The notes under the pieces are model-generated. The model was not told the origin of the DNA. It did no database searches and saw only the letters and a program-made list of their open reading frames with translations. Below, one piece after another: positions 1-36,605 of a stretch of 38,375 nt of DNA. The first letter of the stretch is position 1, and each line of letters begins with the position of its first letter. Made by a program: the position numbers and the translations under genes. Source of the stretch: Candidatus Gastranaerophilales bacterium. GTDB taxonomy: Bacteria > Cyanobacteriota > Vampirovibrionia > Gastranaerophilales > Gastranaerophilaceae. The DNA lies in contig CANQRT010000001.1 of NCBI GenBank assembly GCA_947626325.1, forward strand, positions 1 to 38,375, read 5' to 3'.

Positions 1-711
1 TAACCCGTTTAGCGCACATTCAAGCTGAAGCGCACCAGCAAAATAACTCTCTACCGTTACTGCCGTTGCCATGCCAAGGTCATTGTGGTTGTGAACCGAT
101 ATAACTATATCTTTTGGAAGTGCATTATATACCTTTTCTACAAGATTAATAAATGTTTTTGGACGTGTCCTTTCAACAGTATTAGGCAGATTAATTACAT
201 TTGCTCCCGCTTTTACTATTTGTTTAAGCGTATCTATAACAAAATCAATGTTTTCAGCACAATCACCAAAATGCTCAACGGAAAATTGCACTTCTCCCTT
301 GCTTCCGATAGTTTTCTTTGCAAACTCAACTGCCTCTATTGCCTGCTTTCTTACCTGTTCAGGCGATTTATTTAAAACATACTGCATATTAAAGGGGCTC
401 ATGGCAATAAATGTATGAATTCTCTGCTTTGGAGCAGATTTTATCGCTTCAGACGCTTTTATAATGTCATTTTCCACGCACCTTGCAAGCGCTGAAATTA
501 CAATATTATCAGGAGCAATTGAGGCTAAATGCGAGCATGCCTCATAATCCATTTCCGAAGCAGCTGCAAAACCTGCCTCTATTCCTTGAACACCGAGCTC
601 TTTTAAGTGATTAAATATTATCTCTTTTTCATAAGTGTTCCACGGCTTTTTTAATGATTGATTGCCGTCACGCAATGTTATATCATAGAAAAAAGGCTGT
701 CTTTGCACCAT
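1..711 (-). CDS. 2-isopropylmalate synthase / homocitrate synthase family protein (HMGL-like). Only the N-terminal 237 codons are present; the 3' end runs off the window.
   Basis: My own minus-strand translation from ATG at 711-709 reads MVQRQPFFYDITLRDGNQSLKKPWNTYEKEIIFNHLKELGVQGIEAGFAAASEMDYE...VHNHNDLGMATAVTVESYFAGALQLECALNGL. LRDGNQ, HNHNDLG and ECxxNGxG are hallmark motifs of the family. AAGGAG sits 5 nt upstream of the ATG. It is open to position 1 (711 nt = 237 codons) and is absent from the ORF track because there is no stop in the window. Confidence 0.75.
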   Translation of the reverse strand, partial: MVQRQPFFYDITLRDGNQSLKKPWNTYEKEIIFNHLKELGVQGIEAGFAAASEMDYEACSHLASIAPDNIVISALARCVENDIIKASEAIKSAPKQRIHTFIAMSPFNMQYVLNKSPEQVRKQAIEAVEFAKKTIGSKGEVQFSVEHFGDCAENIDFVIDTLKQIVKAGANVINLPNTVERTRPKTFINLVEKVYNALPKDIVISVHNHNDLGMATAVTVESYFAGALQLECALNGL

Positions 712-731
712 TTATGCTCCTTTATCCATTC

Positions 732-760
732 TTGAACTATGTTATCTGTTATTGTAAAAT
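732..760 (+). promoter_or_regulatory. Candidate sigma70-type promoter for purB
   Basis: TTGAAC (732-737), a 17-nt spacer, then TAAAAT (755-760) preceded by TG. It lies 26 nt upstream of the purB ATG in the 74-nt divergent intergenic region. Confidence 0.4.
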
Positions 761-785
761 AAAAGAATTGAAAAAGGAAGTTTTT

Positions 786-2078
786 ATGATTGACAGGTAT
801 TCTCGCGATGAAATGAAAAAAATATGGGATTTAGATAGCAAATTCCAATATTATCTTAACGTTGAACTTGCGGTTTGCAAAGCATATAATGAACTTGGCG
901 TGATTTCAAACAGCGTGCTTGAAGATATTACTAAAAGTGCTTCCTTTTCCGTTGACAGAATTGCGGAAATTGAAAAAGAAGTCCGCCACGACGTAATTGC
1001 ATTTCTTACAAGTGTGAATGAAAATGTGGGCGAAAATTCAAGATATATCCACATGGGGCTTACAAGCTCGGATGTTATAGATACTGCACTCGCCCTGCAG
1101 ATGAAAGACAGCGGGAATATTATTTTAAAAGATTTAGATGAAATCATTTGCACCGTTAAAGAAAAGGCAAAGGAACATAAAAATACCGTATGTATAGGGC
1201 GCTCGCACGGTATTCACGCAGAGCCGATGACCTTTGGTGTTAAACTCTGCGGGTGGATTGACCTGTTTGAACGTGCAAAACGCAGTTTTAAATTTGCGCT
1301 TGATGAAGCTTTGGTTGGTCAAGTTTCAGGCCCTGTCGGTACTTACAGCAATATTAATCCAGAAATAGAAAAACTCGTTTGCAAATATTTAGGCTTGAAA
1401 CCTGCTAAATTTTCTACTCAAATTATTGCCCGTGATATCCATGCCCGCTTTATCCAGTCATTGGCTGTTATTGGCAGTGTAATAGAACAAATAGCAGTTG
1501 AGCTTCGCCACCTCCAAAGAACCGAAGTATCAGAGGTCGAGGAGGGATTTAGCGCAGGACAAAAGGGTTCATCAGCTATGCCTCATAAAAAAAATCCAAT
1601 CTCGGGCGAAAATTTAACGGGATTAGCCAGAATTGTCCGCTCTAATTCTATTAGTGCACTTGAAAATATTGCGCTTTGGCATGAAAGAGATATTTCTCAC
1701 TCAAGCGTGGAAAGGATTATCTTCCCCGATACTACAATTTTAATTGATTATATGCTGTCAAGGCTCAATAACGTTATTAAAAATCTTGTCGTGCATAAAG
1801 ATACAATGCTTAAAAATACCAATAAATTCGGCGGTATTGTGTTTTCACAAAAAGTACTGCTGAAACTCTGCGAAAAAGGACTGTCCCGCGAAGATGCCTA
1901 TAAACTTGTTCAAAAAAACGCACTCAAGGCATTTAATAATAACGGCAGTTTTATTGATAATCTTTTAAATGATGAAGAAATTAAATCAAAACTAACCGAG
2001 GCTGAAATAAAATCCTGCTTTGATATAAAAGATTATCTAAAGAATATAGAGCAGATATATTCCCGCTTTGGAGTTTAG
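786..2078 (+). CDS. purB: Adenylosuccinate lyase
   Basis: MIDRYSRDEMKKIWDLDSKFQYYLNVELA..., GLTSSDVIDTA and SSAMPHKKNP (the fumarate-lyase signature) are typical of PurB. I chose the start at the internal ATG 786 (AAGGAAG upstream) rather than the track start 654, whose 44-aa extension overlaps the divergent gene's start and looks non-coding. Confidence 0.9.
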   Translation: MIDRYSRDEMKKIWDLDSKFQYYLNVELAVCKAYNELGVISNSVLEDITKSASFSVDRIAEIEKEVRHDVIAFLTSVNENVGENSRYIHMGLTSSDVIDTALALQMKDSGNIILKDLDEIICTVKEKAKEHKNTVCIGRSHGIHAEPMTFGVKLCGWIDLFERAKRSFKFALDEALVGQVSGPVGTYSNINPEIEKLVCKYLGLKPAKFSTQIIARDIHARFIQSLAVIGSVIEQIAVELRHLQRTEVSEVEEGFSAGQKGSSAMPHKKNPISGENLTGLARIVRSNSISALENIALWHERDISHSSVERIIFPDTTILIDYMLSRLNNVIKNLVVHKDTMLKNTNKFGGIVFSQKVLLKLCEKGLSREDAYKLVQKNALKAFNNNGSFIDNLLNDEEIKSKLTEAEIKSCFDIKDYLKNIEQIYSRFGV

Positions 2079-3070
2079 TTAAAATCTATATTCTTTACAA
2101 CAGCGTCTGCTAATTCTTCATAAGCTCTTTCTGTCGGGTGCAGATTGTCCTGCATTTTGTATTCGGGTGAATTTAAGTCGGCTTTAATATAATCACTTAC
2201 TTTTAAAACAATAAAATTATTTTCTTTTAATTTGTCAATGAAAACATCTGTATGGTTTAAATGCCAGTCATCATAAACAATAACAATAAATTTGACTTTT
2301 TTGCCCCAGCGTTTTTCCATAGCCTCTCTTGATAAAAGAAAGTATTTAAGAGCGGTGTCTGTTAATTTTTTGTTATTCTTAAAGTTTTTTACATAATTAT
2401 CCGCATATATGTGATTAAAATGTTTGACTGTGTATAACGAATTGAAAAAAGTGACAGGCAGATTGTTATAATTATCCATTACAAATTTGTCTTTTTTAAA
2501 AGTATAGTGAGGGTAAACAAAACTGTCGGTTACATCAAAATAATTTAGTAAAGTACGTCTGTAATGGTCATTAATCATAATATAAATTACTGTATCAGAG
2601 GGCGGAACATCTTTATAAAAATCTCTGCCTTTTTCATCATTAGTTTGAAAATACATTAAATGCCAGCTTCCGCCGATTATTCCTCTGTTATAAACAGGAC
2701 GTTTTAATTTATTCGCCAGCTTGTAACTGAATGTTTGATTGTATTTTAAATATTGACCGTAAGCGTAAGATCCTCCAAATAAAACAATAGGACGGCAATC
2801 TTTTTTGCCTTTGCAATATTTAAGTCCGTCGGGCTTTCTGCCCCAATAATAAATATCGTCCTTTTCTTTAAAAAATCCGCTTAAATCATAAATGTAGCTT
2901 GGAATATAATGCTTGTATGTAAAATTCGGTATTTGCGAGGTTTTTGGACGTATATCGTAGAAAATGTTTTTATAATGCTTGTAAACTAATAAATCTGAAA
3001 TAAATAAAACTAAAGATAAAATTAAAATATTAATAAAAAAAACTAACGAAATTTTAAACAACTTTTTCAT
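2075..3070 (-). CDS. Membrane-anchored SGNH/GDSL-type hydrolase or acyltransferase-like protein
   Basis: 331 aa with an N-terminal hydrophobic anchor (ISLVFFINILILSLVLFISDLLVY). SGNH-like blocks are FGGSYAYGQ (block I Ser), IMINDH (block III Asn) and DNLHPT (block V Asp-x-x-His). The exact substrate is unknown. Confidence 0.5.
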   Translation of the reverse strand: MKKLFKISLVFFINILILSLVLFISDLLVYKHYKNIFYDIRPKTSQIPNFTYKHYIPSYIYDLSGFFKEKDDIYYWGRKPDGLKYCKGKKDCRPIVLFGGSYAYGQYLKYNQTFSYKLANKLKRPVYNRGIIGGSWHLMYFQTNDEKGRDFYKDVPPSDTVIYIMINDHYRRTLLNYFDVTDSFVYPHYTFKKDKFVMDNYNNLPVTFFNSLYTVKHFNHIYADNYVKNFKNNKKLTDTALKYFLLSREAMEKRWGKKVKFIVIVYDDWHLNHTDVFIDKLKENNFIVLKVSDYIKADLNSPEYKMQDNLHPTERAYEELADAVVKNIDFN

Positions 3071-3353
3071 AAAGTATATATTAACATGTTTGATTTTAAC
3101 TGGCAGAATGATTGTTTAATAAAAAATAAAAAACTTTAAACATGTTAAGAAAAATTTACAATACGGTGAATAAATAATCAAAGCGGGTATTTTAGAGAGT
3201 CGCAATTTTGTTGTATATTTCATTAATTTAAAAAAACAATATCTAAAATAAAAAATAAAATGGGTTAAAAAAAGTATTTGTGTAAGAAAAAAAGGCTTGA
3301 TTTGAAAAATTTAACATGTAGGATATATTTATTGACAAAATAAAGAGGAAAAA

Positions 3354-3569
3354 ATGTCAAAAGACGTAATAGAATTCGAAGGAACAATAATAGAATCACT
3401 GCCGAATGCAATGTTTCGAGTTGGTTTAGAAAACGGGCATGAAATACTGGCGCATATATCAGGTAAGATAAGAAAGAATTTTATTAAAATATTACCTGGA
3501 GATAAAGTGAAAGTAGAGATGACACCCTACGATTTAACAAGAGGCAGAATTACATACAGGTTGAAATAG
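3354..3569 (+). CDS. infA: Translation initiation factor IF-1
   Basis: A 71-aa S1-like protein, [23 protein letters not shown]...[35 protein letters not shown], a near-canonical IF-1. AGAGGA RBS upstream. Confidence 0.95.
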
Positions 3570-3669
3570 TTAAACCGCGCAGGCGGGCTAACACTGGGGA
3601 GAGGGAAGGTAAGAAAAAACTAAAAACCCTCTCGATAAAAAGGAATGATATAAGGAAAAGGAAAATAAA

Positions 3670-9860: not shown

Positions 9861-10754
9861 TTACCGCCAGTGAAATATTTTTATTCCAAGGATATTAAGC
9901 ATTATTCTTTTATTGTCAATTTGAAGTTTACCCAATAAAAACGGGTAAACTTTTGTATTTAAATCTTCTAATAAGTATGCATTTGTCTCTTTAATTTTAA
10001 GATTATATTTTTCAATATTGTATTTAAGCCAAACGTTAAAAAATCTCTCGGCAGCGAAGGCTTGGCTTCGAATTTCATTATAAGTTTTATACTTAGTTAA
10101 ATCAGTAGTTTTTTCAATTTCGAAAAGAATATTAAAAATCCAATCACACCAGTTTATAAATAAATCTTTTCTCATAACAAAATTAAGTGCAAGATACATT
10201 TCATGCCCGTTTAAAAAATCATTCATACAATTATTGTATTCAGGGTAGTTTGTTTTAACAATTTCAATAAACTTATCAATAATTTCTTTTGGATGTTCTG
10301 AGATATATTGTTCATAAATTGTGAGTTTTAAATTAGAAATGTGCCTTGACAAAATTATGTCATTTCCGTCAATTGCTTTGGCAATGATTTCGGGAGTATT
10401 GTTTTTCAAAAAGTTTTTTGTAAAAAATTTATAATCTGTTAATTTAAAACTGTACGGTTCAACTTTTTTATTAATAAAATCGAAAAATCTTCTATAGTGG
10501 CAAAAACCAATATATTCTATATTCGGATTTTCTTTTAAATAGTTTTTCCAAACCCAATAAGTTGCTGTTAATTCACCATAATAAGGATTTTTTGAGGAAA
10601 TATTATTACCTGTATTATCAGTTAAAATACCCCCCCCCGAGAGAATTTTATTTAATGCACAACCCGCTTGAATAGGTTTAAAAATTTCATTCTGAAAAAT
10701 GGGGGCTTGTTTAAAATATATTGGAAATATTACAATTTTTTGATTATTATTCAT
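9861..10754 (-). CDS. DUF4422-family putative glycosyltransferase
   Basis: DNTGNNISSKNPYYGELTATYWVWKNY...IGFCHYRRFF matches the conserved core I recall for DUF4422 proteins from capsule and LPS loci. Confidence 0.7.
   Translation of the reverse strand: MNNNQKIVIFPIYFKQAPIFQNEIFKPIQAGCALNKILSGGGILTDNTGNNISSKNPYYGELTATYWVWKNYLKENPNIEYIGFCHYRRFFDFINKKVEPYSFKLTDYKFFTKNFLKNNTPEIIAKAIDGNDIILSRHISNLKLTIYEQYISEHPKEIIDKFIEIVKTNYPEYNNCMNDFLNGHEMYLALNFVMRKDLFINWCDWIFNILFEIEKTTDLTKYKTYNEIRSQAFAAERFFNVWLKYNIEKYNLKIKETNAYLLEDLNTKVYPFLLGKLQIDNKRIMLNILGIKIFHWR
10630..10638 (-). repeat. Homopolymeric G9 tract (C9 on the + strand) inside the DUF4422 coding sequence, at codons about 39-42 (SGGG)
   Basis: Read directly: ...aaaatacccccccccgagag.... 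The minus strand reads tcG GGG GGG GGt. Confidence 0.95.
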
Positions 10755-15240: not shown

Positions 15241-15477
15241 ATGGGGAATTACATGTTTTTTTCAATGACAAATTCAGCAGCTGCAAGTTATGTAATGTTT
15301 TCTTTAAATTCTTCGCATTCAGAAAGTGCAGGTACTGTAGCTGACGGAGGTTACGGCAGTGCATTCTCAAGTTTTGGATTGGGTGCTGAAACAGCAGGTT
15401 CTGTAGCTTGCTTGGGCACATCAAGCTCGGGCGGCGGATATGCTTGTTCGGGTGGTTCTTATTCTGCTGTTGCATAA
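15241..15477 (+). CDS. Small Gly/Ser/Ala/Tyr-rich peptide (78 aa) with no Lys or Arg and 2 Cys. Function unknown.
   Basis: Strong RBS AAGGAGG 7 nt upstream of the ATG and an intrinsic terminator starting 8 nt after the stop. The sequence is MGNYMFFSMTNSAAASYVMFSLNSSHSESAGTVADGGYGSAFSSFGLGAETAGSVACLGTSSSGGGYACSGGSYSAVA. An alternative start is Met5 at 15253. Confidence 0.6.
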   Translation: MGNYMFFSMTNSAAASYVMFSLNSSHSESAGTVADGGYGSAFSSFGLGAETAGSVACLGTSSSGGGYACSGGSYSAVA

Positions 15478-15484
15478 ACAAAAA

Positions 15485-15514
15485 ACAGGATGATTTTTGT
15501 CATCCTGTTTTTTG
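15485..15514. terminator. Bidirectional rho-independent terminator between the peptide gene (+) and the zinc-ribbon gene (-)
   Basis: ACAGGATGA (15485-15493), loop TTTTTG, TCATCCTGT (15500-15508), then TTTTTT. An A-run lies upstream. Confidence 0.8.
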
Positions 15515-15530
15515 TTTCTTAATTTATATT

Positions 15531-15824: not shown

Positions 15825-16022
15825 TTTGAGTTTCTCCTTAGCTTGGGTTTAATTAAAAAATTGTTACATAAACATTGTATAATTTTACTCCATTTTTAGC
15901 AAGGATAAAGATAAAAAAAATAAATATTAAGAAACGTAAATTTTTTTAAAAAAAGCTCTAACATGAGGCAATAATATTGTTTTAGGATGTTTAAAACAAC
16001 AGGAATTTATCTGTGAGGTACG

Positions 16023-17054
16023 ATGGTCGACAAAATAGGGGTACAAAATTACAATAATTCGCAACATTTATCTGCATTGACTTTTGGGAATAAGGATGCA
16101 GATAAAAGAAGTAAATGCGAAAATCATGACAGATTAATGGCTGAAGATATTAAGAAACACCCGATTTCAACTCGTTTAAAAATACAATCAGATAAATTAA
16201 CTAAAGCATTTACAAAATACCCCGTAAAAGGCTTTAAAGGTAGTAAGAATGCTAATTTTTATGAGTTTCTTACTATGGGAACAGTACCTTATTTAACAGG
16301 CAGTGCAATGCTGATAGCTGTTTTTAACGGCGCAAGAGCTTTTATTTCTGATGAAGCAAAAAAACAAGCAGCTGCAAAACTTGGTAATAAAATGGGATTA
16401 GGCGTTTTATTTTATGGAATTGCCAAAGTATTATCTAAAAAATTAATCGAACTCCCTGTAAAATGGAAACACGGCATTGACGTTAATTTGCCTTATATAA
16501 AGAAAATTGATGAACTTCCAGAAGAAGATAATACAAATAATCTTGTAAGCTATGAATACCATAAAGCTTATGAGAGCGTTGATTTCCCTCGTTGGGATTT
16601 ATTCTATAATAATAAATTTTATGGAGATGAAAGAAACTCTTATTTCAGCAAAATTGCAAATAAAATGAATATAAATGACGGTGATTTAGAGCATGCCGAC
16701 CAAAAAGTAAAACCTAAAATAAAAGAAAAAGTAATACAAACTAAAGTATTTTCAACATTAATTTCCTATCTGTGGGCGGCTGTAGGAGTCGGCATTGCCA
16801 TGCAAAAACCTTGGGAGAAATTATCACTTCATCCTAAAGAAATTATTAATAAATTTATACAAAGCTGTAAAGAATTTGTTAACAATTCAAATCCTGCGGC
16901 TAAAATAGCTGGTAGAGTTCTGCTCGGAGCCGCAATTGGCATGACTTTATTAGGCAATTTTAAAACTCTTTTTGACTTTAATAAAGATAAGGGGTCAAAA
17001 ACTCATGCAGCTTCATCACTTATTGATGAAAGTAAAGAAAAGGTAGTATGTTAG
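16023..17054 (+). CDS. Hypothetical polytopic membrane protein (343 aa, about 4 TM); first gene of the unknown operon
   Basis: GAGG 5 nt upstream of the ATG. Hydrophobic segments are FLTMGTVPYLTGSAMLIAVF, MGLGVLFYGIAKVL, VFSTLISYLWAAVGVGIAM and IAGRVLLGAAIGMTLLGNF. No family recognised. Confidence 0.7.
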   Translation: MVDKIGVQNYNNSQHLSALTFGNKDADKRSKCENHDRLMAEDIKKHPISTRLKIQSDKLTKAFTKYPVKGFKGSKNANFYEFLTMGTVPYLTGSAMLIAVFNGARAFISDEAKKQAAAKLGNKMGLGVLFYGIAKVLSKKLIELPVKWKHGIDVNLPYIKKIDELPEEDNTNNLVSYEYHKAYESVDFPRWDLFYNNKFYGDERNSYFSKIANKMNINDGDLEHADQKVKPKIKEKVIQTKVFSTLISYLWAAVGVGIAMQKPWEKLSLHPKEIINKFIQSCKEFVNNSNPAAKIAGRVLLGAAIGMTLLGNFKTLFDFNKDKGSKTHAASSLIDESKEKVVC

Positions 17055-17055
17055 G

Positions 17056-19320
17056 ATGTCAAACTTATTAAATTCAATACTGACAAATAATTCAACTGAT
17101 AATAAACATAATTCTTATGTTTATAAACATACTTTTACCTTTGATTCTGAAGGCAGAGTAAAACCAAAAGAGGATAAAGCAAAATTACTTCCGTCAAGAA
17201 TATTCGGCTCCCCTGTTGAATATGCAAAAGATTTAAAAAAAGATGTAGTAAATATTGGGCGTGCAATGAAAGGGCAGGCAAATGACCATGAACTTGGCAG
17301 AATAAATGATGTTGCAATGAAATTAGGTTCATTTGCTTTAGCTTGTTATTTATTTGTTAAAAATCCATTAAAATTAAATAAAACAATGGAATTTGTCGGA
17401 CTGGGAACGTTCTTCACTTCAATGGCTTTATGGCCTAAATTAGCTATACAAGCTCCAATTAAGGCAAGAACGGGCGTTGATATTCATCAAAAATATATTG
17501 ACTCTCAGGGACGTAAGAAAATGATGTTCCAAGATCCTCAATATGATTTAACCGATTTATATTCAAGGGAAGATTTAGACAGAATAGGTAAAAAACTTAA
17601 GGTTTCGGAAAATCTTCCAGATCGTGACAGATTTATTAAACAAAGAGCTAAAAAACTTGCAACTCAAGGTAATACTTTATGGATGATGAGTGCTGGATTA
17701 TCTGCACCAATAATGAGTGCATTAACATGTAATGTACTTGAAAAACCTATAACAAACTTATTAGAAAAGCACGCATTAAATTCAACAAAGAAAGCAATGG
17801 AAGCATTAAATACCAATGCTGCAGGAAAAGAAGTTTGGGAAGCTGTTCAAAAATTCGTTTCGGAAAACGGTCAAACTGTTTTAGATGATGCATCATTACA
17901 AGAATTGATGAAAAAATTGCCAAATGTTAATTCATCTAATTTTAATAACAGTATAAGACAATATATTCAAACGCTGGCAGGTAATATTAGAAATACTTTA
18001 GATAAGAACATTGTAGAACAAGCTGTAAGCGGAAAATTAGATAAATCAGTAATTGAACAAGTATTAGGCGATATGTCTGATGATTTGTTAAAACAAACTT
18101 CTGTTGAAGATATAGCACGCAAACTTGCTAATGCAAGCGGTCTTTCACACGGTAAGAAAAATAAATTAATTGGTGAATTAACAAAATTAATTAAAGAAAC
18201 ACAATCAAAACAACCTGTAACTATAGGTCAAATTGGTGAGCAAATTCAAAAATTAGGTAATTCGTTAGTTAATTTCTCATCGGGTAAAAATGTAATAGAA
18301 AAATTCATTCACGCAAGAGTTGGTGAAGAATCAGGAACTTATATAGCAAACCAATGGGGCAGAGTTACAAAATCCTTATTCAAATCGCTTCATTTAAAAG
18401 ACAGCGAATTAAAAGCACTGCAAAATGGCGGTAATTATGAAATTATTACAAAGAAAATAGCCGAATTACCTGCTGAACAGTATGAAAAATTAATGAGCAA
18501 ACTGTTAAAATTAATTGAAGAATATGAAACAAAGACTGGTGCTGATGAAATGATGAATGCTGTAAGTTCAAAAGCAAAAGAAGTATGCGGTGCAGCGGGA
18601 AAAACATTAACGGAAAACGGGTTTGATGATTTAGCAAGAAGAGTTACAGCAGATGTAAAAGCGGGAACTATAGAAAATGAGATAAATCAAAGAGCTAAGA
18701 ATGGAATATCAGGTGCTAAATCCTCATTCTATAGATTAATACAGTGGATTGATTTATTAAAGAAAGAGCAATCAGGCGATTTAACTAATCAAGTTAAAGA
18801 GGCTCTTAAATTAGCAGGTAAAGATTCAAGTGATGATGCAGTAAAAGCAATGATTGAAAAATGTAAAAGCGTATTATTAGGAGCAACTCCTTCTGATTAT
18901 GCTGAAAAACTAAAATCTGCAAACTTTAGATTAGATAATGATGAGTATAAAATAATAACAGATATATTATTTAAAAACGGCGAAAAAGAAGCAACAAGCG
19001 GTTTAGCTGCTTATAAAAAAGAAATAATGGATAAACTTATTAACTGGAAAAATGATATAACTCCTGATTTATCACGTGCAATATCAGAAAATAGCAGTGT
19101 TGCATCAAACGCTACTGAAAGAAGCGCATTATCAGGTAAACCTATAACAGACTGGATAAAAGAATCAGCTAAAGATTTATATACATCAAGAAAATGGTTA
19201 AAAATCTTTGGCGGTGCAATGATAGCAATAACGGTAATAACTTTAACAGTTGGATTAATTTTAGGTCGTAAAAGCAAGATAGAAAAGCAAGTAGAGGCGG
19301 AAAGTAAGGCAAATGGCTAG
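17056..19320 (+). CDS. Hypothetical membrane protein (754 aa). It has an N-terminal module paralogous to the preceding gene, a roughly 480-aa helical Lys/Glu/Ala-rich region and a C-terminal TM.
   Basis: The ATG lies 1 nt after the upstream stop. TM-like segments are LGSFALACYLFV, FVGLGTFFTSMALWPKLAI, LWMMSAGLSAPIMSALTCNVL and IFGGAMIAITVITLTVGLILG. No family recognised. Confidence 0.7.
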   Translation: MSNLLNSILTNNSTDNKHNSYVYKHTFTFDSEGRVKPKEDKAKLLPSRIFGSPVEYAKDLKKDVVNIGRAMKGQANDHELGRINDVAMKLGSFALACYLFVKNPLKLNKTMEFVGLGTFFTSMALWPKLAIQAPIKARTGVDIHQKYIDSQGRKKMMFQDPQYDLTDLYSREDLDRIGKKLKVSENLPDRDRFIKQRAKKLATQGNTLWMMSAGLSAPIMSALTCNVLEKPITNLLEKHALNSTKKAMEALNTNAAGKEVWEAVQKFVSENGQTVLDDASLQELMKKLPNVNSSNFNNSIRQYIQTLAGNIRNTLDKNIVEQAVSGKLDKSVIEQVLGDMSDDLLKQTSVEDIARKLANASGLSHGKKNKLIGELTKLIKETQSKQPVTIGQIGEQIQKLGNSLVNFSSGKNVIEKFIHARVGEESGTYIANQWGRVTKSLFKSLHLKDSELKALQNGGNYEIITKKIAELPAEQYEKLMSKLLKLIEEYETKTGADEMMNAVSSKAKEVCGAAGKTLTENGFDDLARRVTADVKAGTIENEINQRAKNGISGAKSSFYRLIQWIDLLKKEQSGDLTNQVKEALKLAGKDSSDDAVKAMIEKCKSVLLGATPSDYAEKLKSANFRLDNDEYKIITDILFKNGEKEATSGLAAYKKEIMDKLINWKNDITPDLSRAISENSSVASNATERSALSGKPITDWIKESAKDLYTSRKWLKIFGGAMIAITVITLTVGLILGRKSKIEKQVEAESKANG

Positions 19321-21061
19321 TTATTTAGATTTATATTTGAATAAAATTTCTCAAACAGCACAGCAGCAAATGCCTCCTATGCCTACTGCAGTATTGGCTG
19401 CTAAAGTTGAACCTGCTGTTATTCAGCCTTTAGGCACAAATGTTCTTGAAAAGTATTTGCAAAATCAAGGAAATTCAGCTGTTCTTTGTGTTACTCCAGT
19501 TAATGCAAATTCTGCAAATGGAGAATACAAAAATAATTTAAGAAGTAAATTTAAAAATAATGAAGCGGTTATAATGGGTGTAATCATTAGAAGCATGGGT
19601 GCTCAAAACCGCAGTGGCAATCAGCTTTTAAGAGACGGTGATATAAAAGGTACCTTTAATAATGCTGTCAACAGGCTGGATGAATTAAAGAAATTAGGAA
19701 TAAATACTTTACATGTACTTCCTGTTAATCCTCCTGGAAAACAAAATGCAATGGGAACGGCAGGTTCATTATATTCCCCTGCTGACTTTTTAAAAATTGA
19801 TCCTGCTTTAGATGATCCTAATGATCCAAAAACTGTAAAAGAAGAATTTAAAAACTTTATAAATGAATGTCATAAACGTGGTATAAGTGTAATGCTTGAT
19901 TTACCAAGCTGTGCTTCTTATGATTTATTTAAAGAAAGACCTGAATTAATGGCGTTTGAAAAAGACGGAACGCCGAAGACTCCAGGAGGCTGGAATGATA
20001 TTAGAATGTTCTCGCCTTGGAAAGATGAATCAAAACGTGAATTAAATCCTGAATTATTACAAATGCACAAAGACTTTGTTGATATGTGTATAGATTTAGG
20101 TATTGACGGTATAAGAAGCGATGTTGCAAGAACAAAACCGACTGAGTTTTGGGATATCTTAATTAATTATTCTAGGTCAAAAGATCCTGAATTTGCTTGG
20201 CTTGCAGAAAGCTATACTTATGAGGATGCTTCACCTCAATTAAATATGGATTATGACCGACCAGAAGATTCTTTAAGAGCAGGTTTTGACAGTTATTACG
20301 GTCAATATCATATATTCCATGAATGGACAAAGGCTCAAGATTTATATGATTATGTTGAAGAAAATATTAATATGTCGCAAGATTTGGATAAAGGAAAATC
20401 ATTAATTGGTTCATTTGGTACTCATGATGATATTTCAATAATGAACCACGGCGGTGTTATTTATACTAACTTAGTATCAGGTTTACAGGCAACATTACCA
20501 ATGTTAAACCCTTATTACTTTGACGGTTATCAAACAGGTGATGATTATATTTATGATTTTGAAGGTACAACAGATGAACAAACAGATACAGACTCTAATG
20601 AATGTACCGTTCATAGAGGCAGACCTGATATATTTAACTTCTCCAGACCATTAATAGGTAAATATCCTGAATGTGGTGATTTTATGCAAAATACCCTTTC
20701 TGTAAGAAATAATGAAAAATACCATGATATTTTAACTAAAGGTTCATTTATTCCTTTAAAAGTTAATAAAAATGACCACGACCAGATAATTACATTTGTA
20801 AGACATTTAAATGGAAAAACTTTACTTGTTGTTGCAAATAGAGATGTAAACGCAAGACAGGCTGGGGTTATTGATATTCCAGATTTAAAATCTAATCAAA
20901 AATTAACAAATTTATTCAAATCCTATGGAGATAACAGTGAATTTCAAGTTTCAGACGGTAAATTAACTGCTGATTTAGGCCCTGGCAGAATTCACCTCTT
21001 TGAAATAGATACTCCAAATATTGAAAAATCAGGGTTAAAAGTATTTAAACAAAATGTCTAA
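19313..21061 (+). CDS. Glycoside hydrolase family 13 (alpha-amylase superfamily) protein, divergent, with no signal peptide
   Basis: 582 aa. GH13 regions: GINTLHVLPVNP (beta2-3), MLDLPSCAS (region I), GIDGIRSDVART (region II, nucleophile Asp), AWLAESY (region III, acid/base Glu), GSFGTHDD (region IV), and a C-terminal beta-domain (ITFVRHLNGKTLLVVANRD...LGPGRIHLFEI). The start overlaps the upstream gene by 8 nt (ATGGCTAG). Confidence 0.8.
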   Translation: MASYLDLYLNKISQTAQQQMPPMPTAVLAAKVEPAVIQPLGTNVLEKYLQNQGNSAVLCVTPVNANSANGEYKNNLRSKFKNNEAVIMGVIIRSMGAQNRSGNQLLRDGDIKGTFNNAVNRLDELKKLGINTLHVLPVNPPGKQNAMGTAGSLYSPADFLKIDPALDDPNDPKTVKEEFKNFINECHKRGISVMLDLPSCASYDLFKERPELMAFEKDGTPKTPGGWNDIRMFSPWKDESKRELNPELLQMHKDFVDMCIDLGIDGIRSDVARTKPTEFWDILINYSRSKDPEFAWLAESYTYEDASPQLNMDYDRPEDSLRAGFDSYYGQYHIFHEWTKAQDLYDYVEENINMSQDLDKGKSLIGSFGTHDDISIMNHGGVIYTNLVSGLQATLPMLNPYYFDGYQTGDDYIYDFEGTTDEQTDTDSNECTVHRGRPDIFNFSRPLIGKYPECGDFMQNTLSVRNNEKYHDILTKGSFIPLKVNKNDHDQIITFVRHLNGKTLLVVANRDVNARQAGVIDIPDLKSNQKLTNLFKSYGDNSEFQVSDGKLTADLGPGRIHLFEIDTPNIEKSGLKVFKQNV

Positions 21062-21072
21062 CGGTGATAAAT

Positions 21073-21363
21073 ATGCGTATAAATTCAATTAACAGTGTAA
21101 ATAGAATAAAATTTGCTTCTAATCCATCTGAGAATAAAAGTTCCAAGCAGCAAAATTTATCCTCGGATGAACTGCTTATTAAAAAAACAAAGAAAACAGC
21201 AAGGCTGTGTTTATTAATTGTAACAGGTTTGGCTGTATTATATTTTGCATTTATACGTAACCATAAGATAAATAAAAAAATATCATTTGATAAAATTATG
21301 AACAAAAAAGCTCAAGCAGCCAAACCATTTGTTGAAAACGTTGAAAACTTATGTTTTAACTAA
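21073..21363 (+). CDS. Hypothetical small single-pass membrane protein (96 aa from ATG 21073; the track starts at GTG 21064)
   Basis: GGTGA 6 nt upstream of ATG 21073. There is one TM (LCLLIVTGLAVLYFAFI) flanked by Lys-rich segments. Its 3' end overlaps the convergent deoC by 15 nt. Coding status is less certain than for its neighbours. Confidence 0.45.
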   Translation: MRINSINSVNRIKFASNPSENKSSKQQNLSSDELLIKKTKKTARLCLLIVTGLAVLYFAFIRNHKINKKISFDKIMNKKAQAAKPFVENVENLCFN

Positions 21364-28902: not shown

Positions 28903-30546
28903 ATGGAAGACCAAAATAATTCTCAAGAATTAGAAGAACAAGGGCAAAAAGAAAAAACTGAAGCTCAAAAAAAAGCTAAAGACCCAGAAAAAGATAAAAG
29001 AAGTTTGTTTATGACTATCCTTGTATTTGGGATATTGTTGTTTATAATAATCGGTTTTAGAGCTTATTTATCAAATTTATATCCTGAACAACAAATGGCA
29101 AAAGCTAAGAAATATTATAATGATGGTCAATACGAAAAAGCAGTAAAATTATTTGATTCTGCAGCAAATGCACTTCCGCATGATTATGAGCCAATATATT
29201 ATAAAGCGCTGGCACTATCTAAAATGCCTGCTAACGCAGAAAATCAAAAAGAATTATATGAGATAGCCTGGATGGATGATTGTGATAAAGCTAATGAAGT
29301 TGCAGAAAAAGCGTTAGGGCAAATCAGATGGAAATTAAATAAAGAAATAGGTTCAAATTATACAGATAATGTTTTATATGAAGATAAGCTGATAAGGTGG
29401 AATAAGTCAGAGCCCATAACATATTCAATTAAATCTAAAGGACAAATTCCAAACAATTATTATAATGATGTAAAATCAGCCTTTGATGAATGGCAGAAAA
29501 GATTAAATAATGAAATAGTTTTTAAAGAAATAAATAACAATAATGCCAAAATAAATGTTGTGTTTACCGATGAAATTAGCGGTGAAAATATTAATCAAAC
29601 CTCAGGAAATACAAAACCTGTTATTAATAATTCTAAATTAGAAAAAATGAATGTAAAATTAAAAAAACATGATACCGCAGGAAACAATTTTAAAGATGAA
29701 CAATTAACAAGTTTAGCACAGCATGAAATCGGGCATGCTTTAGGGTTATTCGGTCATAGCGCAAATCAATATGACATAATGTATTTAGATAGAGATACAG
29801 TAACACCCCAAACACAATACCAAGGTATATCAGACCGTGATATAAATACTGTTAAAGCCGTTTATAATATGATACCTGATGTAATAGATACTCCTCTATC
29901 TCCTGCAGAGATGAAAAATATGTATTTCCATAATGTTTTAACTTATTATCCTGGAGAAAATTATGAGTTAGACGTTCAAAGAACTTTATCTCAAATAAAA
30001 GAAAGCCAGCAAAGCATAGTATTATGGGTTAATTTAGCTATAGACTATGGTTACAGAGGTCAATATGAGCGTTCTAATTATGTATTAACTCATTTATTCC
30101 CTTTAATAACTAATGATTTTGAAAATCAGTTTGTAGTTTTATATAATATCGCTGTAAATTATTATAAAATGAGAGATTACTCAAATGCACAAAAATATTT
30201 ATATGCTGCAACAAATATAAATGATGATAAAGACACTCAAACATTAGAAGCTTTCTTAGATTATAGAATGGGAAGAACTGAACTGGCTAAAAGTAAGCTG
30301 AAATTATTAAATAATAAATATCCTACAGATATAGAAATTGCTTTAAAGTTAGCTAATGTATATTACAGATTGGATGATATTGAAAAAGAAAATGAAGTTA
30401 TTGACAATATCATTTTAAATAATCCCCAAGCAATGTCTGATAGAAGAATATCAAAATATAGACCATTTGGGGCTAAATACATAAGTAAAAATAATAAGGC
30501 TGATAAAAAAGATAAAAAAAATAAAAAATCAAAAGGAAGCAAATAA
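28903..30546 (+). CDS. Membrane-anchored TPR-repeat protein with a matrixin-like (metzincin, M10-type) zinc metalloprotease domain
   Basis: 547 aa with a charged N-terminus followed by a TM (LFMTILVFGILLFIIIGF). IRWNKSEPITYSI...VKSAFDEWQ...KINVVFTD resembles the matrixin N-terminal sheet. HEIGHALGLFGHS is an HExxHxxGxxH motif, followed by a DIMY Met-turn. TPR-like repeats lie before and after the protease domain, and the tail is Lys-rich. AAAGGAG RBS 12 nt after the scpB stop. Confidence 0.7.
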   Translation: MEDQNNSQELEEQGQKEKTEAQKKAKDPEKDKRSLFMTILVFGILLFIIIGFRAYLSNLYPEQQMAKAKKYYNDGQYEKAVKLFDSAANALPHDYEPIYYKALALSKMPANAENQKELYEIAWMDDCDKANEVAEKALGQIRWKLNKEIGSNYTDNVLYEDKLIRWNKSEPITYSIKSKGQIPNNYYNDVKSAFDEWQKRLNNEIVFKEINNNNAKINVVFTDEISGENINQTSGNTKPVINNSKLEKMNVKLKKHDTAGNNFKDEQLTSLAQHEIGHALGLFGHSANQYDIMYLDRDTVTPQTQYQGISDRDINTVKAVYNMIPDVIDTPLSPAEMKNMYFHNVLTYYPGENYELDVQRTLSQIKESQQSIVLWVNLAIDYGYRGQYERSNYVLTHLFPLITNDFENQFVVLYNIAVNYYKMRDYSNAQKYLYAATNINDDKDTQTLEAFLDYRMGRTELAKSKLKLLNNKYPTDIEIALKLANVYYRLDDIEKENEVIDNIILNNPQAMSDRRISKYRPFGAKYISKNNKADKKDKKNKKSKGSK

Positions 30547-35942: not shown

Positions 35943-36002
35943 AGCTATACTTAAATGTAATACAAATTGGCGTTAAATTCAATTAAATATAAAGGAGTTT
36001 TA

Positions 36003-36605
36003 ATGAAAGGCTGTTTTAGTTTTATAATAAAGACAATCATTGCATTACTGGTGTTTTTCGGGCTAATGCACCTCGGTGTAATAGATTTTATAAAAGAGAA
36101 GATAGAAGAAAATAACAGTTCTTCGCAAGAGCGGATAATGGAAAAAACAAAAGATATTCTAGATTTTTCGCAGATAGGTGAAGAATATTCTCTGGATAAA
36201 AATTTAAAGCTGTTAAAAAACAGAATGATAATAGCAGAGCATAATGCAAGCGGACAAAAGATGATAATGATTGTCCCGAAAGACGATGCAATTTTAACTA
36301 AAGCTGATATTAAGAGTGATAAATTGCAAGAGAAAGTTGATGAGGCTATAAACAAGTATAAATACAAAGTAGTAAGGATAGATAAAGCTGAAGTAACAAA
36401 ACGAGGAGAATTTAAAGGGATAGAACAGCAAATTCCTTATGCAAGAATAAACGCAAATATATCGAGCCTGCCTGTTAAAGATATGGAAGGAATTTTAGGT
36501 GTTGCTGAATTAAAAGACGGCAAAAACTTAATTGTTATATCCGTAAACGAGAAGGGGAAATACTCGCAAATAATAACAGAAGCGTTTTACGGGCAGGTAA
36601 AATAA
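36003..36605 (+). CDS. Hypothetical signal-anchored or secreted protein (200 aa from ATG 36003)
   Basis: AAAGGAG 6 nt upstream of ATG 36003, preferred over the track start 35967. It has a hydrophobic N-terminus (MKGCFSFIIKTIIALLVFFGLMHLG). No family recognised. The antisense ORF 35951-36367 is rejected. Confidence 0.6.
   Translation: MKGCFSFIIKTIIALLVFFGLMHLGVIDFIKEKIEENNSSSQERIMEKTKDILDFSQIGEEYSLDKNLKLLKNRMIIAEHNASGQKMIMIVPKDDAILTKADIKSDKLQEKVDEAINKYKYKVVRIDKAEVTKRGEFKGIEQQIPYARINANISSLPVKDMEGILGVAELKDGKNLIVISVNEKGKYSQIITEAFYGQVK

Follow-up and report, generated by a model that had tools for sequence, protein, structure and literature searches.

The 38,375-nucleotide (nt) stretch analysed here, hereafter the window (positions 1 to 38,375 of contig CANQRT010000001.1 from Candidatus Gastranaerophilales bacterium), carries at positions 16023-21363 a four-gene operon, whose products comprise two paralogous membrane proteins A and B, a divergent amylase-family GH13 protein C and a small bitopic protein D. 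A, B and C constitute a conserved module, and sequence comparison suggests that C is held at the cytoplasmic face of a membrane platform made by A and B. The genes and their parts, all on the + strand, are as follows.

16023-17054, +: gene A, open reading frame (ORF) of 343 amino acids (aa); membrane protein with four transmembrane segments (TMs), paralogue of the B core, with conserved, putatively cytoplasmic loops and the C-terminus KEKVVC
17056-19320, +: gene B, ORF of 754 aa
17056-17742, +: B residues 1-229; putatively cytoplasmic N-terminal segment, TM1-TM2 hairpin, conserved 75-aa loop and TM3 (alignments A1 and A3)
17743-19191, +: B residues 230-712; all-helical, variable, modular domain, putatively periplasmic
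19192-19320, +: B residues 713-754; TM4 and conserved basic tail GRKxKxEKQxE, with the stop codon overlapping the start of C
19313-21061, +: gene C, ORF of 582 aa
19313-19564, +: C residues 1-84; N-terminal extension without signal peptide, carrying the motifs MANYIDKY and GTNILExFLQNQG with variable linkers between (alignments A4 and A5)
19565-21061, +: C residues 85-582; GH13 catalytic barrel and C-terminal beta domain
20120-20122, +: predicted nucleophile D270 of C, codon checked
20207-20209, +: predicted acid/base E299 of C, codon checked
20423-20428, +: H371-D372 of C, codons checked
21073-21363, +: gene D, ORF of 96 aa; bitopic clade-specific accessory with the motif DEIxTAKTKKAxSEC-TM-ILYFAMKRNxK

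The four ORFs and their junctions read as described in the original prediction. The A/B junction at 17052-17058, read directly as GTA TGT TAG g ATG, leaves a gap of 1 nt, B and C overlap by 8 nt at 19313-19320 (ATGGCTAG, common to the B stop and the C start), and the TAA of C is followed by 11 nt (cGGTGAtaaat, with its GGTGA) before the ATG of D at 21073. An alternative GTG start at 21064 would extend D to 99 aa, and the 3' end of D overlaps the convergent deoC gene by 15 nt. This geometry recurs in 54 species-level genomes, with 1 nt between the A stop and the B start, an overlap of B and C in most of them, usually of 8 nt, and a C-D gap of mostly 0-16 nt (one of -4). Junction geometry is hence a conserved feature and not a matter of chance, and the proposed tight coupling of the operon is borne out in all related loci.

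Gene order was followed from each of the three larger genes: from B by a pattern scan of one genome per GTDB species, which gave 54 loci, from A by locating the weakest full-length matches of an exhaustive search on their contigs, with a guanine plus cytosine (GC) content of 31-58%, and from C by a metagenome scan, which gave 80 loci. A, B and C are adjacent in every sufficiently long locus of the 54 species genomes and in about 40 metagenome loci reached from C. Homologues of C scoring at least about 600 bits always have B directly upstream, and also A where the contig reaches. Around the distant A genes the flanks are wholly different (EF-P/accBC, fumarase/murB, lpxC, infC/pyrF and others), and the A-B-C order is kept in the distant loci L058, L059, L142 and L144 and, with B and C fused, in L061; in L060 and L143, A is followed by B and the contigs end inside B. 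Since the scans from B, A and C all show it, A-B-C is a unit independent of its neighbourhood, which travels with the signal-less branch of a lineage-specific GH13 group. Thus the linkage, held open earlier as a possible accident of position, persists as synteny even in very distant relatives with other neighbours.

The module is a narrowly distributed conserved trait of gut Melainabacteria and a few more distant lineages. Gastranaerophilales-type bacteria are non-photosynthetic relatives of Cyanobacteria, common in animal and human guts, and to our knowledge the gut Melainabacteria that carry the module are uncultured. The names under which homologues are deposited include Candidatus Gastranaerophilales, 'Cyanobacteria bacterium SIG29' and 'uncultured Vampirovibrio', and the window DNA was detected in rabbit gut metagenomes. 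Six GenBank records of metagenome-assembled genomes titled 'uncultured Muribaculaceae bacterium' (L018, L024, L038, L039, L043 and L054) carry the operon as well, most of them with typical Gastranaerophilales flanks, and these titles are probably mislabelled.

One of the structural features of the distant locus L061 is a single 1007-aa B-C protein, encoded at L061:5027-8050 (GC 50%) after A (L061:3813-5030). The B core is recognised in its residues 83-258 (E = 5e-30) and C in its residues 510-1005 (E = 1e-100); the part in the middle comprises a shortened helical region and GGIGGTVAVLSGLYYAFGLG, a hydrophobic segment that resembles TM4. The fusion joins the B tail to the N-terminus of C, exactly the ends that overlap in the window. 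Fusion of the overlapping ends is strong evidence that B and C act together.

Neither A nor B has a match among characterised families. All 779 homologues of A are unnamed or hypothetical and without a Pfam domain, and an exhaustive A-family profile search of 1.84 billion cluster representatives returned just 167 clusters; the A family is narrow. Single-sequence, profile and member-by-member searches of Pfam, NCBIfam, PADLOC, PHROGs and PDB sequences gave no match for A and only scattered sub-threshold matches, forming no consistent family, for B. AlphaFold2 models were obtained for A, with a predicted local distance difference test score (pLDDT) of 77 and a predicted template modelling score (pTM) of 0.70, and for B (pLDDT 80, pTM 0.72), and Foldseek comparison of these models with PDB gave no meaningful match (best template modelling score 0.20 for A and 0.13 for B). 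The original prediction, which could place the 343-aa and 754-aa proteins in no known family, agrees with the outcome of both the HMMER-type library checks and Foldseek. A TolA-like identity for B was also considered and found no supporting match.

A and B are nevertheless related to each other, as had been proposed. Profile-profile comparison by hhalign aligns residues 19-241 of A with residues 25-206 of B (probability 83%, E = 8.5e-6, 177 columns), and the B-family hidden Markov model (HMM) picks distant A proteins with E = 1e-11 to 5e-6. In the alignment, KGxxGSKNANFYEF of A corresponds to KGxANDHELGRIND of B, PVKxKYGIDVNLPY to PIKARTGVDIHQKY and FPRWDLFY to DPQYDLTDLY. Both comparisons thus indicate that the two proteins are paralogous. 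Their common plan consists of an N-terminal tail, a TM1-TM2 hairpin, a conserved 75-100-aa loop with a beta-hairpin, TM3, a variable segment, TM4 and a short tail, with the motifs RTGVDxxQxYxDSxxRKK, DPQYxLTD and PDRDxFIKQRAKK marking the 75-aa loop of B. The variable segment comprises about 30 aa in the A protein of the window and about 480 aa, all helical, in B. The membrane plan first drawn is hence amended, such that A has the same four TMs as B with a short loop replacing the helical domain, the latter being most likely periplasmic.

Residues 190-735 of B are predicted to be all-helical, with pLDDT mostly above 90 at about 260-640 in the AlphaFold2 model. Of the earlier description of some 480 Lys/Glu/Ala-rich helical residues, the helical part stands; the composition of residues 230-712 fits it only roughly (K 12%, L 10%, A 8.7%, S 8.7%, E 8.1%). 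Relatives of B are 527 to 1286 aa long in total, that of L059 having internal repeats, and regional identity is 79-84% in the N-terminal core and other conserved, putatively cytoplasmic parts versus 31% in the helical domain. TM4 is the strongest hydrophobic segment of B (Kyte-Doolittle value, KD, 2.29), and W714, G719, G737, R738, K739, E743 and E747 are invariant at the C-terminus. In A, the C-terminal KEKVVC is invariant in 50 out of 50 sequences of the window's clade, and not in distant A proteins. The nucleotides coding for it (window 17025-17058, GAAAAGGTAGTATGTTAGGATG) also carry the likely ribosome-binding site of B, and the conservation may act at the level of RNA, of protein or of both.

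C was recognised as a GH13 protein by PF00128 with 31.3 bits (cut-off 22), the aligned part being limited to residues 108-211, and its PF16657 score is below the cut-off. A family profile built from 36 orthologues finds 3dhu, 4gkl, 1gju and GlgE in PDB with E = 4.6e-18 to about 1e-12, over the first half of the barrel only, and the similarity to GH13 begins at about residue 85-105. DGIRSDVA of C aligns with DGYRCDVA/DGFRCDVA, and WLAES with WLAES/WISET, of 3dhu and 4gkl, which points to D270 as the nucleophile and E299 as the acid/base. D270, E299, H371-D372, R268 and D196 are invariant in 36 close orthologues (alignment A4) and 12 divergent sequences (alignment A5), from 99% down to 42% identity. 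The invariant GSFGTHDD has the form expected for region IV, and the HMMER alignments to solved structures stop short of H371-D372. Among the relatives listed, C is the most constrained of the four proteins (73-79% identity versus 55-68% for A and 45-50% for B).

The main departure of C from the family lies in region I, which reads D196-L-P-S-C200 (DLPSC) in place of the canonical DxxxNH, the aligned stretch of 4gkl being DMVLNHA; SC is kept without exception, even in distant members. None of the NCBIfam equivalogs for GlgE, TreS, TreY/TreZ, GlgX, pullulanase or cyclomaltodextrinase is matched above its cut-off, the best NCBIfam scores being 43.7 bits for the TreS N-terminal model (cut-off 678) and 43.1 bits for MalA (cut-off 875), with others lower. 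By these features C defines a GH13 subfamily of its own, new in the changed motif at subsite -1. C is apparently a catalytically competent retaining enzyme. C lacks any hydrophobic segment, at the N-terminus or elsewhere, hence neither a signal peptide nor a TM is present, and its extension of about 84 aa is variable except for two short motifs. The description of a divergent GH13 without signal peptide and with an N-terminal extension is upheld, and the cytoplasmic side assigned to it is the probable one.

The closest relatives of C, at 36-44% identity, form a sister clade (L117, L122-L130 and L132-L140), whose loci encode classical Sec signal peptides, with no A or B gene nearby and no N-terminal extension (for example L122:6914-8452, L127:6926-8467, L130/L140:6947-8467 and L132:6803-8524). 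In common with C, these proteins have region I PSCG/PACG, the catalytic residues and the TDxD insertion. The names recovered for the sister clade are CAG:306, Ca. Limenecus and Ca. Spyradomonas, which we take to belong to the same order as the window, Gastranaerophilales. Located 5' of the secreted GH13 are, in L122 (6559-6870), a 103-aa bitopic, D-like ORF (MYLNSISSV...IFKAKF...TM) and, in L127 (6178-6921) and L140 (6215-6937), a bitopic protein of some 240 aa, which on visual inspection resembles LysM at its C-terminus and gives no NCBIfam match.

A second GH13-related protein, giant in size (1222 to more than 1650 aa), adjoins the module in nine loci and in two arrangements, directly 3' of C (L086, L093, L103, L109, L142 and L144) or divergent and 5' of A (L060, L061 and L106). 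Its positions on these contigs include the following.

L103:8716-12717: giant GH13, 3' of C
L086:8658-13073: giant GH13, 3' of C
L142:13492-17385: giant GH13, 3' of C
L144:5506-end: giant GH13, 3' of C
L060:2775-6791, -: giant GH13, divergent, 5' of A
L061:2-3667, -: giant GH13, divergent, 5' of A
L106:~6-3641, -: giant GH13, divergent, 5' of A

The N-terminal part of this protein matches GH13 enzymes of the neopullulanase/cyclomaltodextrinase type (E down to about 1e-12), with large insertions and without a signal peptide, and the 38-kb window contains no copy of it. Its linkage in two arrangements provides a second tie of the module to alpha-glucan enzymology. The fourth position is occupied otherwise in the window's clade, where a small ORF with a hydrophobic segment lies 3' of C in 49 out of 49 loci. 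D was not found after C in the more distant loci examined. The small bitopic fourth protein of the original prediction is therefore constant within the clade and lies outside the conserved core, being absent beyond the clade. Identity of D as a holin was rejected: the match to PF09682 (Phage holin superfamily 6) reaches 17.2 bits versus a cut-off of 24.9 (E = 0.0067), and PHROGs gave no match below E = 0.08. Like A and B, D thus falls into no known family.

The predicted disordered N-termini of A (16023-16100), B (17056-17160), D (21073-21130) and the giant GH13 in L086, L103, L142 and L144 show a loose common pattern, in which M-x-[VI]-x... and an Asn/Ser-rich stretch are followed by [SP]-x-F-[KGT](G) near residue 15-40. 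SF[KG] is present in 64% of the A, 30% of the D and two of the six E proteins versus about 10% of background genes, a background that still includes A genes. This pattern is no more than suggestive; it may reflect composition, or it may serve these proteins in common as a motif for docking or targeting.

The membrane orientation of A and B was addressed by counting Lys plus Arg (K+R) flanking the TMs in 84 B and 50 A sequences. The counts before and after the segments are 3.9 and 2.2 for TM3 of B, 3.3 and 5.3 for TM4 of B, 2.2 and 4.5 for TM2 of A, and 5.7 and 3.2 for TM3 of A, and all four pairs fit an arrangement with the N-terminus in, the conserved loop in, the variable segment out and the C-tail in. 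By the parity rule, the L061 fusion would place the GH13 on the same side as the B C-tail and opposite to the helical domain. Because the K+R counts, the parity of the fusion and the lack of a signal peptide on C concur, the GH13 and the highly conserved parts of A and B are predicted to be cytoplasmic, and the helical domain of B is most likely periplasmic.

Taken together, A and B as paralogous four-TM inner-membrane proteins would assemble into a platform, probably a heteromer, whose N-terminal segments, TM2-TM3 loops and C-tails would face the cytoplasm, with the helical domain of B projecting into the periplasm. C, as a GH13 of the maltosyltransferase/AmyB/GlgE-like branch, would be held on the cytoplasmic face of this platform, its N-terminal extension most likely docking beside the C-tail of B, as the two ends are covalently joined in L061. 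Such a complex would confine the cleavage or transglycosylation of an alpha-glucan (maltodextrin or glycogen-like) to the membrane, and tethering would most plausibly couple this reaction to glucan passage across the membrane or to a periplasmic cue. Physiologically, it might serve for handling the products of the secreted paralogues or for polymer export. The fourth position would be taken by the second, giant GH13 in other lineages and by the bitopic D in the window's clade.

Physical assembly of A, B and C with C on the cytoplasmic face is regarded as fairly secure, and the fuller reading, an inner-membrane A/B platform that holds C at the membrane as an active alpha-glucan enzyme, is given about an even chance of being right. 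C retains an intact catalytic machinery, its closest characterised relatives use maltosyl units or maltodextrins, and the module is accompanied by a second GH13 in nine loci, which together make an alpha-glucan a reasonable substrate. A membrane-tethered alpha-glucan complex had earlier been offered as pure inference and has now gained independent support from the B-C fusion, the recurrent second GH13 and the topology statistics, with the activity itself being a prediction. Several observations weigh against the platform reading. C has Cys in place of the canonical region I His of GH13, so something other than a plain alpha-1,4-glucan may be its substrate. With its nearest relatives being secreted proteins, C might also act outside the cytoplasm. 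The topology of A and B is deduced from charge counts together with parity, TM1 and TM2 are short stretches of weak hydrophobicity (about 12-16 hydrophobic residues), and the flanks of the TM4-like segment in the L061 fusion are if anything reversed, with four Arg before and two Lys after. With four TMs each, A and B contain nothing that marks a channel. RNA-seq evidence for a single transcript was also sought, and the sequence turned up only in DNA runs (rabbit gut and a cetacean metagenome) and in no RNA run. A bolder version of the platform, in which A and B would form a new inner-membrane glucan conduit, is considered unlikely: C, in many lineages together with the giant GH13, would build or feed the chain by transglycosylation, threading it into the periplasm or pulling it in, guided by the periplasmic helical domain of B, and translocation would be driven by a GH-family enzyme without a glycosyltransferase.

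The main alternative, which likewise appears unlikely, is a sensor-effector system without transport, in which the periplasmic domain of B would sense an envelope or osmotic signal and control C allosterically, so that glucan is mobilised or trehalose or maltose is made. The B domain is large, well folded in the AlphaFold2 model, variable and anchored at both ends, the cytoplasmic loops are conserved in the manner of a signalling interface, and the top partial NCBIfam match of C is the TreS N-terminal model. However, that score is far below what TreS membership takes, library scans found no HAMP, PAS, kinase or GGDEF domain in any component, and a length range of about 250 to about 1000 aa for the B domain is unusual for a specific ligand sensor. 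The Sec signal peptides of the sister clade could instead mean that C acts outside the cytoplasm, with A and B, together with a holin-like D, providing a dedicated non-Sec export route or a periplasmic anchor. The weak holin-family match of D (E = 0.0067) and the Arg-rich side of TM4 in L061, which would fit an N-in/C-out signal anchor, agree with this. We hold it to be quite unlikely, as the family-wide charge counts put the C-tail of B on the inner side, and the fused GH13 with it, prediction assigns the conserved faces of A and B to the cytoplasm, the N-terminus of C has no recognisable export signal, and D, whose holin score is below the cut-off, is missing from most lineages with A-B-C. 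A GH13-fold protein that is obligately linked to membrane-protein genes, and fused to one of them in L061, also recalls the heteromeric SLC3/SLC7 transporters, in which rBAT and 4F2hc serve SLC7, and C might by analogy be a non-enzymatic subunit of a new A/B transporter. Invariance of the Asp/Glu/Asp triad, the Arg and the region IV His over deep divergence speaks for conserved chemistry, C itself is devoid of TMs, and A and B, with four TMs each, are unlike any transporter fold by Foldseek, which renders such a structural role improbable. Lastly, the four genes could be mere neighbours in a syntenic core region without joint function. Synteny within the window's clade alone is indeed weak evidence, because the wider neighbourhood (hom, the Zn-ribbon gene, deoC, recO, pilT, smc) is conserved there too. 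Nevertheless, this explanation is effectively refuted by the persistence of the module between unrelated flanks in L058, L059, L061, L142 and L144 (and of A-B in L060 and L143), by the conserved start/stop overlaps and the fusion of B and C, and by C-type GH13s of at least about 600 bits never occurring without A/B where upstream DNA is given.

Among known systems, the best sequence matches of C are 1gju (Thermotoga maltosyltransferase), 4gkl (T. neapolitana AmyB), 3dhu (L. plantarum amylase) and the GlgE structure 3zss, with family profile E = 5e-18 to 2e-12. Enzymes of this group are intracellular and act on maltosyl or maltodextrin units. C has in common with them the GTxGSxY loop, the nucleophile Asp within DGxRxDVA of region II and the acid/base Glu within LAE of region III, and they too carry no export signal in the aligned region, which covers only the first half of the barrel at about 25% identity. 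C differs from them by the invariant SC in place of NH in region I, and by the insertion GDDYxYDFEG...TDTD...VHRGxPDIFNFSRP and the 84-aa N-terminal extension, which they lack; unlike C, they are not known to be encoded with or fused to membrane proteins.

Two further likenesses are analogies. In the case of SLC3 heavy chains (rBAT, 4F2hc), as with C, a GH13-fold protein is obligately paired with a membrane protein. These chains are type II membrane glycoproteins whose GH13-like domain lies outside the cell, and a disulphide bond joins them to a 12-TM transporter of the LeuT fold. C differs in lacking a TM, which sets it outside SLC3, in being putatively cytoplasmic and in keeping all catalytic residues, and A/B have another, unmatched four-TM fold. 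The fungal alpha-1,3-glucan synthase Ags1/Mok1 likewise unites, within a single alpha-glucan machine, a GH13-type transglycosylase and a domain with several TMs. In Ags1, the GH13 domain is extracellular and a GT5 synthase domain is present as well; unlike Ags1, the operon yielded no glycosyltransferase in Pfam and NCBIfam scans. The domain DUF445 (PF04286), whose function is unknown, gave matches below the Pfam cut-off in two of the 21 B homologues of alignment A1 (best E = 4.6e-4) and appears in two precomputed annotations (P0075 and P0091), whereas the B of the window and most homologues have no such match; a very remote link to B is possible. Literature on Gastranaerophilales, Melainabacteria and Vampirovibrionia in combination with GH13, amylase or alpha-glucan yielded nothing describing the module. 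As an anti-phage defence system it was rejected, the sole PADLOC match being a generic GlgB-type GH13 model on C (27.5 bits) with none on A, B or D. Thus the A-B-C system appears to lie outside every known kind that could be tested.

The module defines two membrane-protein families without detectable relatives, whose confidently predicted folds are unmatched, and it offers a concrete hypothesis for how polymers of the starch or glycogen type may be handled at the membrane in these bacteria. Should the complex exist, no earlier bacterial case is known to us in which an apparently active amylase-family enzyme serves as an obligate, sometimes covalently fused, subunit of a membrane complex. The L061 fusion is a ready-made construct for the biochemistry and cryo-EM of such a complex.

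The operon is embedded in ordinary core chromosome, as the remainder of the window contains purB, rpsM/rpsD/rpoA, truA, atpD/atpC, thrC, hom, deoC, recO, pilT, smc-scpA-scpB, miaB, mutS and ribD. GC over the operon block is flat at 30-34%, and on this together with the core-chromosome setting a mobile element is rejected; tRNA and Rfam features are absent from the block. Upstream of A lies one further feature of the + strand.

15825-16022, +: AT-rich intergenic region, a 198-nt non-coding gap between a divergent Zn-ribbon gene and A

This gap is the probable promoter region of the operon, given its position, and it contains a sigma-70-like match at 15946-15975, with such matches being no more frequent than in shuffled sequence. 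A perfect hairpin of 19 bp, flanked by T-runs, lies at window 15476-15517 in the gap that separates the Zn-ribbon gene from hom, and it resembles a bidirectional intrinsic terminator. Elsewhere in the window, ORFs of 331 aa (2075-3070, -) and 212 aa (35967-36605, +) are without a Pfam match, a matrixin-type (M10) peptidase with a sub-threshold TPR match is encoded at 28903-30546 (+), and a DUF4422 protein at 9861-10754 (-) lies in the lowest-GC kilobase of the window (25.5%).

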